Assembly: GCA_021323375.2 (NCBI GenBank)
Contig: JAJPCT020000016.1
Coordinates: 85,571-149,570, forward strand
Direction of reading: 5' to 3'
Source: Candidatus Wolframiiraptor gerlachensis
GTDB lineage: Archaea; Thermoproteota; Nitrososphaeria_A; Caldarchaeales; Wolframiiraptoraceae
Length of the DNA: 64,000 nt
This document shows positions 2,261 through 3,121 of the stretch, in pieces (within the stretch, counting starts at the first letter, position 1; each line of letters begins with the position of its first letter). The notes under the pieces are model-generated. The model saw only the letters and a list, made by a program, of their open reading frames with translations. It did not search any database and had not been told where the DNA came from. A program made the position numbers and the translations under genes.

Positions 2261-3121
2261 ATGGCCAGGGTCTATTATGTTGATACCGCCATTCCCAGCG
2301 ACAGGAAGAAGAGAAGGAAGAATAAGACGCATGTGGTCTTCGACGGGGATAGGACGTTTAAGGTGAATAGGCTGACAGAGCTGGAAGACGCCGGCGAGGT
2401 ATTCATTGACACGTTATTCCCGGAGATCTATGATGAGGTCGTGGAATTGTTGAGGAGGGGTGTTAGGGTGTATCTGCTGAAGGACGCCACCAAGCTGAAG
2501 AGGCTGAGAATGGAGAACAATTTGAAGAAGACTGATGAGAATGATGCTATGCTACTTTCAAGGATTCCTCAATGCAGCTTCAAGCAGATCACATTCAAGG
2601 AAATGATACTGTTAAGACTAATCGAGGAGTATGAGAGATATGTTGAGTGGCGGATGGTCATCCGGCGATGGTATCAAATCCACCCATTAAACTCCTTCAA
2701 AGAGTGTATTAGAGAACTCCGCTCCCTATGCGAGCGCCATGCCCGCAAGATTATTAGAGAAGTTAGGAATGATGAAAGCTATGGAACAATATATAGAGCG
2801 GCATGTGAAGCGCTGGGGATCGAGAATAGTGTTCATGTCGCGATATTAATAGTAAAGCTACCACTAAACTGGAAACTCGCCAAATTAAAGGGATTGCTGG
2901 GACTAACGCCACACAGCAAAAAACACAAAAAATATAACCATAAACTACGCGCAAATCTTTCAAACATTGCCGCGAATATTTACTTGAACTACAAGCGATT
3001 AAAGACTAAACCAGAGATTCTACAAGGACTCGAGAACCTTCCAATGAGGAAAACAATTTTTCGGTTAGAGATAAGGATACTGAAGGCATTGAAGAGAGCC
3101 AAAGTTGCCGGCGAGTGGTAA
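2261..3121 (+). CDS. IS110-related / TasR-like protein: N-terminal RuvC (DEDD-like), coiled coil, C-terminal Nop/Tnp_20-like RNA-binding domain
   Basis: YYVD, FIDT and KKTDENDAMLL (IS110 KTDxxDA motif); LKGLLGLTP...YNHKLRANL resembles the IS110 AGLxP...GNxxLR motif; strong SD GGAGGAGGTGA. Confidence 0.8.
   Translation: MARVYYVDTAIPSDRKKRRKNKTHVVFDGDRTFKVNRLTELEDAGEVFIDTLFPEIYDEVVELLRRGVRVYLLKDATKLKRLRMENNLKKTDENDAMLLSRIPQCSFKQITFKEMILLRLIEEYERYVEWRMVIRRWYQIHPLNSFKECIRELRSLCERHARKIIREVRNDESYGTIYRAACEALGIENSVHVAILIVKLPLNWKLAKLKGLLGLTPHSKKHKKYNHKLRANLSNIAANIYLNYKRLKTKPEILQGLENLPMRKTIFRLEIRILKALKRAKVAGEW

Follow-up and report, generated by a model that had tools for sequence, protein, structure and literature searches.

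Two RNA-guided systems that combine a RuvC domain with a Nop domain are known: the IS110 bridge recombinases, which use a serine and move DNA, and the TIGR-TasR nucleases, which cleave DNA and are not known to be linked to mobility. TasR dimers are described as reading opposite strands with two spacers and leaving 8-nucleotide (nt) 3' overhangs (Faure et al. 2025, PMC12045711), and IS110 recombination is described as requiring a serine-bearing beta element that is missing from Nop5 and Prp31 (PMC11213020). The first of these papers, published in Science, also refers to IS110-like RuvC-Nop proteins that have variant Nop domains and form "several communities". Here we analyze a stretch of 64,000 nt (hereafter the window) from the hot-spring archaeon Candidatus Wolframiiraptor gerlachensis (contig JAJPCT020000016.1, positions 85,571 to 149,570), which contains a mobile element encoding a 286-amino-acid (aa) RuvC-Nop protein and a structured RNA. 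This multicopy selfish element points to a previously undescribed way in which RNA can guide the insertion of DNA, with kinship to both bridge-RNA recombinases and TIGR-Tas nucleases. The family joins TasR-like protein features and a TasR-like stagger with a mobile element whose single guide unit matches its own insertion site, and thereby bears on the kinship of TIGR-Tas, IS110 and box C/D ribonucleoproteins (RNPs) and on the natural role of TasR-like nucleases. We found no description of the family in the literature on IS110/Nop5, TIGR-Tas and seekRNA, although the supplementary tables of the Science paper may list members without describing them.

A RuvC-Nop protein lacking the IS110 serine

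The gene is an intact open reading frame (ORF) free of internal stops (Table 1 gives the coordinates of all features). An AlphaFold2 (AF2) model of its product, with a predicted local distance difference test (pLDDT) score of 90.3, comprises a beta/alpha RuvC domain (residues 1-110) and a C-terminal domain made of helices, with a long helical hairpin (112-170) between them. In structure comparisons the model scored highest with TasR (9mty; 17.2, root-mean-square deviation (rmsd) 4.4 over 252 residues), followed by ISCro4 (9t56; 15.3), IS621 (8wt6; 15.2), the Nop domains of TasH (15.2, rmsd 2.5 over 168 residues), Prp31 and Nop5 (about 7) and RuvC (6.9). The predicted fold resembles both known RuvC-Nop classes about equally, with TasR slightly ahead. 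Two chains were predicted to form a symmetric homodimer through residues 126-156 with an ipSAE of 0.60 against 0.00 for the best control, a pass that may partly reflect resemblance to solved Nop5 and TasR dimers. Three runs shared at least 95% of the contacts, the pLDDT of the partner was at least 85, and the mark applied was passed by 20 of 30 solved homodimers and one of 23 solved single chains. Among the features of TasR, a Nop domain with coiled-coil dimerization and an N-terminal RuvC domain are thus present in the predicted models.

The acidic residues lie in the motifs YYVD (D8), FIDT (D50) and KTDENDA (D92 and D95). In a 27-row alignment of the family, whose relatives are 40-68% identical, D8, E46, D50 and D95 were invariant and D92 was at least 90% conserved; in a wider 28-row alignment reaching down to about 21% identity, D95, K90 and R83 were invariant, with D8 and D50 at least 90% conserved. 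The protein therefore has the DEDD RuvC-like N-terminal domain of the IS110 family (D8, D50 with E46, D92 and D95), including the KxDxxDA motif found in bridge-RNA (seekRNA) recombinases such as IS621 and ISCro4.

The C-terminal domain differs from that of IS110. Six canonical archaeal IS110 proteins of the same phylum read GLxPxxxxSG...GR..K.G...LR, with an invariant serine (S261) in the SG motif, and their loop is about 11 residues longer than that of the RuvC-Nop family. The loop of the window protein, GLTPHSKKHKKYNHKLR (residues 214-230), has no SG. The serine of its PHSK sequence sits in a two-residue insertion unique to this protein, a gap in the other 26 of 27 rows. Across the 28-row alignment there is no conserved serine in the C-terminal loop, and four of the 28 members lack the loop itself. 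Y225, in the YNH motif, and S190 are at least 90% conserved and invariant, respectively, among the close relatives in the 27-row alignment, but this conservation is lost in the wider one. A decayed second copy in the window (31162-31523) has an equally short loop, in which a frameshift separates GLLGLTPHKGK from YNHKLRTHL. In the absence of a serine nucleophile the family resembles TasR.

These observations bear out much of the original prediction, a model's reading of the window's letters. It had described a RuvC-Nop protein without the IS110 serine loop, which the alignments and the AF2 model with its structure comparison confirm; it had noted the retained RuvC acidic residues, the short C-terminal segment without SG and the similarly short segment of the decayed copy, the last of which we recovered by three-frame translation. 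It had also named a conserved PHSK serine as a finding that would speak for an ordinary IS110 transposase, and that serine proved to be peculiar to the window protein.

Sequence models likewise agree with the suggestion that this is not a classical bridge recombinase. PF01548 scored 15.4 bits against a cut-off of 29, with the match restricted to the D..D motif (residues 63-102); PF02371 was not listed for the protein at E values up to 10; NF033542 scored 11.7 bits against a cut-off of 140; and hhalign against an alignment of six archaeal IS110 proteins gave a probability of 0.55 over 32 columns around KxDxxDA only. TasR too is distant at the level of sequence: among chains of the Protein Data Bank (PDB), a single-sequence search returned only unrelated matches (E 0.27 or worse), and a family-profile search returned none at E up to 10.

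The family comprises 158 representative clusters (E up to 1e-3) among 1.84 billion. A 90%-clustered set contained 146 family proteins, and the 120 listed have no Pfam domain and are named only "hypothetical protein". Neighbors in the ESM-Atlas were unnamed archaeal clusters first and then viral clusters, partly with PF02371 or PF01548, and the named relatives belong to Ca. Geocrenenecus, Ca. Wolframiiraptor and unnamed Nitrososphaeria metagenome-assembled genomes. All 24 carriers in a 301-genome sample of the phylum fell within the window's own order (7 of 18 genomes in family f1, 8 of 11 in f2 and 8 of 11 in f4), and the family was not found in the other families searched within that sample. 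Canonical IS110 genes above cut-off occurred in none of 21 genomes (the source genome and its relatives) and in 7 of 151 genomes of the phylum. The source genome (1.28 Mb, 89% complete) has about 18 loci of the gene, mutually 40-60% identical; six are full-length and open, and the others are truncated or frameshifted.

A guide RNA and the insertion sites it matches

A structured RNA begins within the last codons of the gene. From a single fold per locus, we obtained the same architecture in all 14 copies examined: a P1 stem of about 14 base pairs (bp), an asymmetric loop (AGUAAA / ACGAGG), a P2 stem of 15-19 bp, one variable internal loop, a P3 hairpin of 10-16 bp, the sequence CCCCACCCC and a T-run. 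The window RNA folds at -63.8 kcal/mol (z -6.87). Because the 5' strand of P1 consists of the last ORF codons, the proteins end in a conserved (L/P)AGG. In a 14-row alignment, 96.3% of cells were paired, compared with 17-42% when the partner was slid by one to three columns; compensatory changes occurred in 14 of 35 pairs, and none of 500 shuffles reached the observed covariation score. Frequent G-U pairs and far higher scores on the sense strand suggest that the RNA is read in the same direction as the gene. Among 12 sequencing runs, no RNA run containing the locus was identified.

A covariance model matched the window RNA at C16:88672-88796 with 84.9 bits and identified 26 dispersed loci in the source genome, 17 of them behind a gene or gene remnant and nine gene-less. 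In other genomes the RNA was present at 13 of 14 loci, the exception being a 35%-identical Wolframiiraptor locus (L036), and in metagenomes at 72 of 80 loci, the remaining eight contigs stopping within 45 nt of the ORF. Rfam reported nothing at the gathering threshold over the whole window except one tRNA, and only two chance-level matches over positions 2950-3560.

The two sides of the internal loop, L (5') and R (3'), vary from copy to copy and are framed alike as GG(U)GG-U ... (U/C)CC around approximately 10-15 variable nt each. This like framing makes the RNA pseudo-symmetric, which fits binding by a dimer. Each gene has a single guide unit, with no array, both in the source genome and at related loci. 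On this point the original prediction stands (one covariance-model match per gene, with two guide segments), and the second, donor-binding loop that it had thought would favor an ordinary IS110 element is missing: none of the 14 aligned copies has a second variable loop. The RNA thus departs from that of IS110, which has a donor-binding loop, and also from TIGR-TasR, in that a single unit overlapping the 3' end of the ORF replaces the tandem array and is placed between the long stems P2 and P3.

The nine gene-less RNAs (C4:18795, C23:2357, C23:12432, C10:17581, C16:72546, C25:78754, C18:58431, C22:92007 and C7:3339) look like internally deleted, non-autonomous derivatives that have kept their own guides. 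One of them, C23:2357-2481, has the same L side as the RNA of the decayed copy at window 31543-31667 and a different R side, which suggests that guide halves can be exchanged or rewritten independently. In the asymmetric loop AGUAAA / ACGAGG(A) (window about 3117-3122 and 3207-3213), NGANGA is spaced as in box C, and the loop could be a K-turn-like, putative L7Ae site.

The window element is bounded by two copies of an 8-bp target-site duplication (TSD), GAACTCCC, exactly complementary to 8 nt on the 3' side of its guide loop. Metagenome contigs from runs X1, X2 and X3 pass directly from window position 946 to 3506 and so omit 2559 letters; 8 letters at this joint can be assigned to either side. 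In run X1 this empty form (depth 105.9) occurs alongside contigs bridging both filled junctions (depths 72 and 56). Contig C14 of sister genome G002 joins position 952 to 3506 and is likewise an empty allele, and G005 carries a deletion remnant at the site. The original prediction had noted a 7-8-bp duplication centered on the guide site, which it took to fit staggered cutting. The duplication is upheld, at 8 bp with empty alleles and equal to the 8-nt stagger of TasR; its fit to the guides is partial (11 of 15 positions for L, and 8 of 8 in the TSD for R).

Across four mapped insertions, the TSD was 8 bp in three (7 of 8 positions identical in one) and 5 bp in the fourth. The C4 element is 1184 nt long with TSD ATAGGTTT and contains the RuvC-Nop gene, the RNA, approximately 140 nt upstream with a remnant of the small gene orfA, and nothing more. 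Its flanks are contiguous in genomes G005 and G008, where the flank alignments overlap by exactly 8 nt. In the empty site in G005, GGGAAATAGGTTTAAGCCT, a 12-nt stretch identical to R runs into a 10-nt stretch complementary to L, the two overlapping by 3. The C1 copy at 50105 (about 1595 nt, TSD CCGAGCTT/CGGAGCTT, 7 of 8 identical) is empty in G002, G008 and G011, and its guides show the same layout, R matching 10 nt and the complement of L matching 14 of 15. In both C4 and C1 the left TSD edge falls within the R duplex and the right edge within the L duplex, and the distance from the 5' GG anchor is 7-8 nt in each case. The same guide tiling recurs at L033 and L112, two loci from other genera, one in each orientation, with degenerate duplications. 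In all four cases (C4, C1, L033 and L112) one loop side equals the top strand at the left half-site, while its counterpart is complementary to the top strand at the right half-site. Judged from these alignments, the two segments would read opposite strands of adjoining target stretches, as the spacers of TasR do, and the 8-bp duplication here would correspond to the 8-nt stagger reported for TasR (PMC12045711), with only the insertion products visible in our case.

To avoid presupposing the position of the guides, we compared the whole RNA interior with the 250 nt downstream of its own locus. Over 107 loci, 32 exact matches of at least 10 nt were reverse-complementary and 2 were same-sense. 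Removing near-duplicates and loci with short flanks left 90 loci, of which 25 had a reverse-complement match of at least 10 nt and none a same-sense match; 200 permutations of RNAs against foreign flanks gave a mean of 1.7 matching loci and a maximum of 7. The matches were confined to the sides of the loop, with L matching at 14 loci (relative position 0.29-0.41) and R at 11 (0.60-0.68). L faces the downstream flank at some loci and R at others, in keeping with a symmetric target and insertion in either orientation. Upstream matches, 39 same-sense and 31 reverse-complement, were uninformative, given a large search space and GC-rich stems. A strict paired test, requiring seeds of at least 8 nt in both flanks and a 7/8 duplication, was passed by 6 loci against 3 in a wrong-strand control, a contrast too weak to rely on, in part because many contigs have no left flank. 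When up to 2-3 mismatches were allowed, matches to the window guides elsewhere in the window were about as common as in shuffled sequences.

None of the four mapped elements has terminal inverted repeats above the shuffled background, and no consistent match of the RNA to the joined element ends was found, one element of four (C4) having 9 nt. That match places the C4 L side, in the same sense, across the right-end/left-end junction; 5 of 2000 shuffles reach it, and it is absent from the other three. Left ends and gene content differ between copies, with orfA and two further modules, X and Y, each multicopy independently. By eye, an A-rich motif is loosely conserved close to the right ends.

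Several copies lie at or beside tRNA genes: C5, at a tRNA-like 5' end, two copies on C1, C17 and metagenome locus L046. At locus L121 (G002:C7), orthologous to the C4 insertion site, there is neither an element nor a clean empty site; some 5-15 nt resembling the right end of the element lie between the half-sites, which looks like an excision or deletion footprint.

How the element may insert, and the alternatives

From the sequences, we consider it likely that the protein is a TasR-like, RNA-guided dimer that makes staggered cuts and sets the insertion site of its own element, thereby acting as the effector of a site-specific mobile element. The observed basis for this proposal is the fold, the conserved acidic residues, the lack of a conserved serine and the gene-linked structured RNA on the one hand, and the guide-flank complementarity, the precise insertions with mostly 8-bp duplications and the segregating empty alleles on the other. 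The RuvC-Nop gene would be co-transcribed with the RNA that starts inside its last codons. One protein dimer would bind the pseudo-symmetric loop and open approximately 19-25 bp of target, one guide side pairing with the bottom strand and the other with the top strand of an adjoining, slightly overlapping stretch. Each RuvC site would nick the guide-paired strand approximately 7-8 nt from the 5' anchor, placing the nicks 8 bp apart, as in TasR. If the guide-paired strand is cut as in TasR, the TSD edges of C4 and C1 would imply 3' overhangs. The element would come to lie between the half-sites in either orientation, flanked by the 8-bp duplication.

How the element is joined to the target is less clear. 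It is quite possible, at somewhat below an even chance, that the protein is a homing-type nuclease, which would cut empty alleles and leave the host's recombination to copy the element in. This version is favored because diverged lineages each occupy their own site with guides matching the uninterrupted allele of that site, and because filled and empty alleles coexist while recognition of ends leaves no sign. New sites would be colonized when a staggered break captures a fragment that bears the element, which would also account for the varying termini. The variable 5' content of the copies led us to consider target-primed reverse transcription, which we rejected because the element encodes no reverse transcriptase and the RNA 3' of the guide is copied as well.

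Several observations weigh against the proposed dimer. A plain nuclease alone explains neither the joining of the element nor the site-fitting guides of the lineages, and 3' overhangs are an awkward substrate for duplication by fill-in. As read from the sequence, the framing of the guides (5' GG, 3' UCC, 10-15 nt) differs in order and length from the box C (CCA-like), 9-nt spacer and box D (UG) arrangement described for tigRNAs. No downstream match of at least 10 nt was found at 65 of the 90 loci. The C5 element (1887 nt, TSD of 5 bp), which interrupts the 5' end of a tRNA-like sequence, is a clear exception in that its guides do not match its junction. The window guides, compared with their target by eye in printed sequences, fit it partly, since R matches within the TSD only and not in the right flank.

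Alternatively, the element may be a strict RNA-guided transposon, in which the DEDD site performs strand transfer in the manner of RNase-H-fold DDE transposases and joins the ends 8 bp apart, the RNA only picking the target. We regard this, the main alternative, as possible though less likely than not. The 8-bp duplications at three of four mapped insertions (one 7 of 8) with clean empty alleles are what such an enzyme would leave, the smallest mapped element (C4, 1184 nt) holds gene, RNA and about 140 nt of upstream sequence only, the nine RNA-only derivatives suggest mobilization in trans, and the A-rich motif near the right ends could be added to these. Yet all four mapped elements lack terminal inverted repeats above shuffles, RNA complementarity to the joined ends is inconsistent (9 nt in one element of four), left ends and gene content vary between copies, and the copies in the genome, at 40-60% identity, include no near-identical pairs, unlike those of a recently transposing insertion sequence.

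Improbable, in our view, is a divergent but otherwise ordinary IS110/IS1111 recombinase that employs another nucleophile (the tyrosine of YNH or S190) and replaces the two-loop bridge RNA by two copies of a one-loop RNA. In IS1111-type elements the RNA also lies 3' of the gene, PF01548 weakly matches over the D..D motif, and Y225 and S190 are conserved among close relatives as given above. The NF033542 score of 11.7 bits against 140, the unmatched PF02371 and the 32-column hhalign probability of 0.55 argue otherwise, as do the missing SG hairpin, the loss of conservation of Y225 and S190 in the wider family and the four members without the loop. Both guide sides match target flanks, so that no donor guide remains, and 8-bp duplications are, to our knowledge, not the IS110 pattern.

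Least probable, though only slightly less likely than the last, is a domesticated, defensive or regulatory TIGR-Tas-like RNP in dispersed single units, its apparent mobility due to some other carrier: TasR is the best structural match, dead TasR and TasA are reported to act as repressors (10.64898/2026.09.09.750476) and nine guide RNAs lack a gene, but the guides match the element's own flanks rather than foreign DNA, the catalytic acidic residues are conserved, many copies are decayed as in selfish DNA, and the smallest mapped insertion contains nothing else able to move it.

The proposed TasR-like dimer of a mobile element can be placed among known systems by what it shares with each. From TIGR-TasR it is set apart by residing in a multicopy insertion whose flanks it matches, and from IS110/IS1111 by each lineage having its own unique site, by the 8-bp target duplication and by the failed Pfam and NCBIfam models; what it has in common with IS110/IS1111 is that the mobile element itself encodes a structured guide RNA, with internal-loop guides that read both target strands. 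In OMEGA systems (IscB/TnpB with omega-RNA, in IS200/IS605 elements) a transposon likewise carries a RuvC nuclease, whose guide RNA is encoded at the 3' end of the nuclease gene; the guide is related to the element's own insertion site, decayed copies are many, and a role in retention or homing is possible. Unlike OMEGA, the element described here has an RNA-binding part of unrelated fold, a dual guide reading both strands, no separate TnpA-type transposase, and target duplications. The putative box C spacing of ACGAGGA recalls the archaeal box C/D small RNP (Nop5-fibrillarin-L7Ae), from which the element differs in its active-looking RuvC residues, its guides matching DNA flanks rather than rRNA, the lack of an encoded fibrillarin partner and its mobility.

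We tentatively raise the further possibility of a third, previously unrecognized RuvC-Nop RNA-guided branch, self-mobile and serine-less, in which one dual-guide RNA programs the insertion of approximately 1-2.5 kb with an 8-bp staggered joint. If true, its relation to TIGR-Tas, and perhaps to IS110, would be that of IscB and TnpB to Cas9 and Cas12, and the dozens of guide pairs per genome would imply an unknown route of guide rewriting; how each lineage gains guides for a new site is a puzzle that the element raises in any event. Should the DEDD site perform the joining, the system would be a single-protein, single-RNA programmable DNA inserter of fewer than 300 aa. The proteins, small (286 aa) and thermostable, are candidates for programmable cutting and possibly insertion, with approximately 20-25 nt of recognition free of a protospacer-adjacent motif (PAM).

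Modules and neighboring genes in the window

In addition to the gene and its RNA, the window element carries two modules and a frameshifted orfA (Table 1). The region of module X (1037-1326) recurs in at least five other places in the genome and at C10:17581 abuts one of the guide RNAs without an ORF. In the C7 copy an intact 77-aa counterpart of orfA stops 1 nt ahead of the start of the RuvC-Nop ORF (orfB). Comparison with the C3 and C7 copies suggests that the window orfA is split by a single additional base within a G/C run (near 1975-1985); at 1977 a letter is missing from some metagenome contigs, which may derive from paralogous copies. The R segment of the decayed copy's RNA has its reverse complement 106 nt downstream.

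Table 1. Positions in the window of the mobile element, its parts and the decayed second copy
Feature	Position	Strand	Remarks
Left TSD copy GAACTCCC (8 bp)	947..954	.	identical 8-mer at 3506-3513; single copy with joined flanks in G002 and metagenome contigs
Inserted mobile element, 2551 nt	955..3505	+	two small minus-strand ORFs, frameshifted orfA, RuvC-Nop gene, guide RNA, 279-nt tail
Module X: 70-aa ORF, two CxxC pairs	1039..1251	-	multicopy; weak sub-threshold Pfam zinc-ribbon matches only
Module Y: 107-aa ORF, no Pfam family	1326..1649	-	recurs at C18, C26 and C7 (adjoining the C7 copy)
orfA: small helical protein gene directly upstream of the RuvC-Nop gene	1860..2244	+	split in two overlapping frames, 1860-2024 and 1939-2244; no Pfam family
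RuvC-coiled coil-Nop protein gene	2261..3121	+	286 aa; ORF list, alignments, fold and dimer models
Guide RNA gene	3102..3226	+	5' strand of P1 overlaps last ORF codons; then conserved asymmetric loop, P2, large internal loop, P3 hairpin
5' (L) guide segment of internal loop	3138..3150	+	varies among copies; same-sense 11/15 against left flank and TSD
3' (R) guide segment of internal loop	3179..3191	+	varies among copies; reverse complement includes TSD GAACTCCC 8/8, 10-nt match at left junction
Right TSD copy GAACTCCC	3506..3513	.	same evidence as left copy
Decayed second gene copy	31162..31523	+	N-terminal truncation and frameshift at GLTP loop; tblastn pieces C16:116735-117093; three-frame translation
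Guide RNA of the decayed copy	31543..31667	+	covariance-model match C16:117113-117237, 110.1 bits

The element is inserted just upstream of the start of a gene that, from its translation, we take to encode ribosomal protein S19. The genes for S19 and L2 are usually neighbors; here the presumed S19 and L2 genes (551-910 and 5864-6589, both minus strand) are approximately 5 kb apart, and two further genes, presumably for membrane or transporter proteins (3584-4540 and 4638-5798), also lie between them. In the tail of the element, positions 3367-3399 contain a T-loop-like motif, GGTTCAAATCC, where ARAGORN and Rfam call no tRNA. Elsewhere in the window, at 41163-41255 on the minus strand, Rfam identifies a tRNA of 90-93 nt (59.6 bits) to which ARAGORN assigns no anticodon; this tRNA probably contains an intron.

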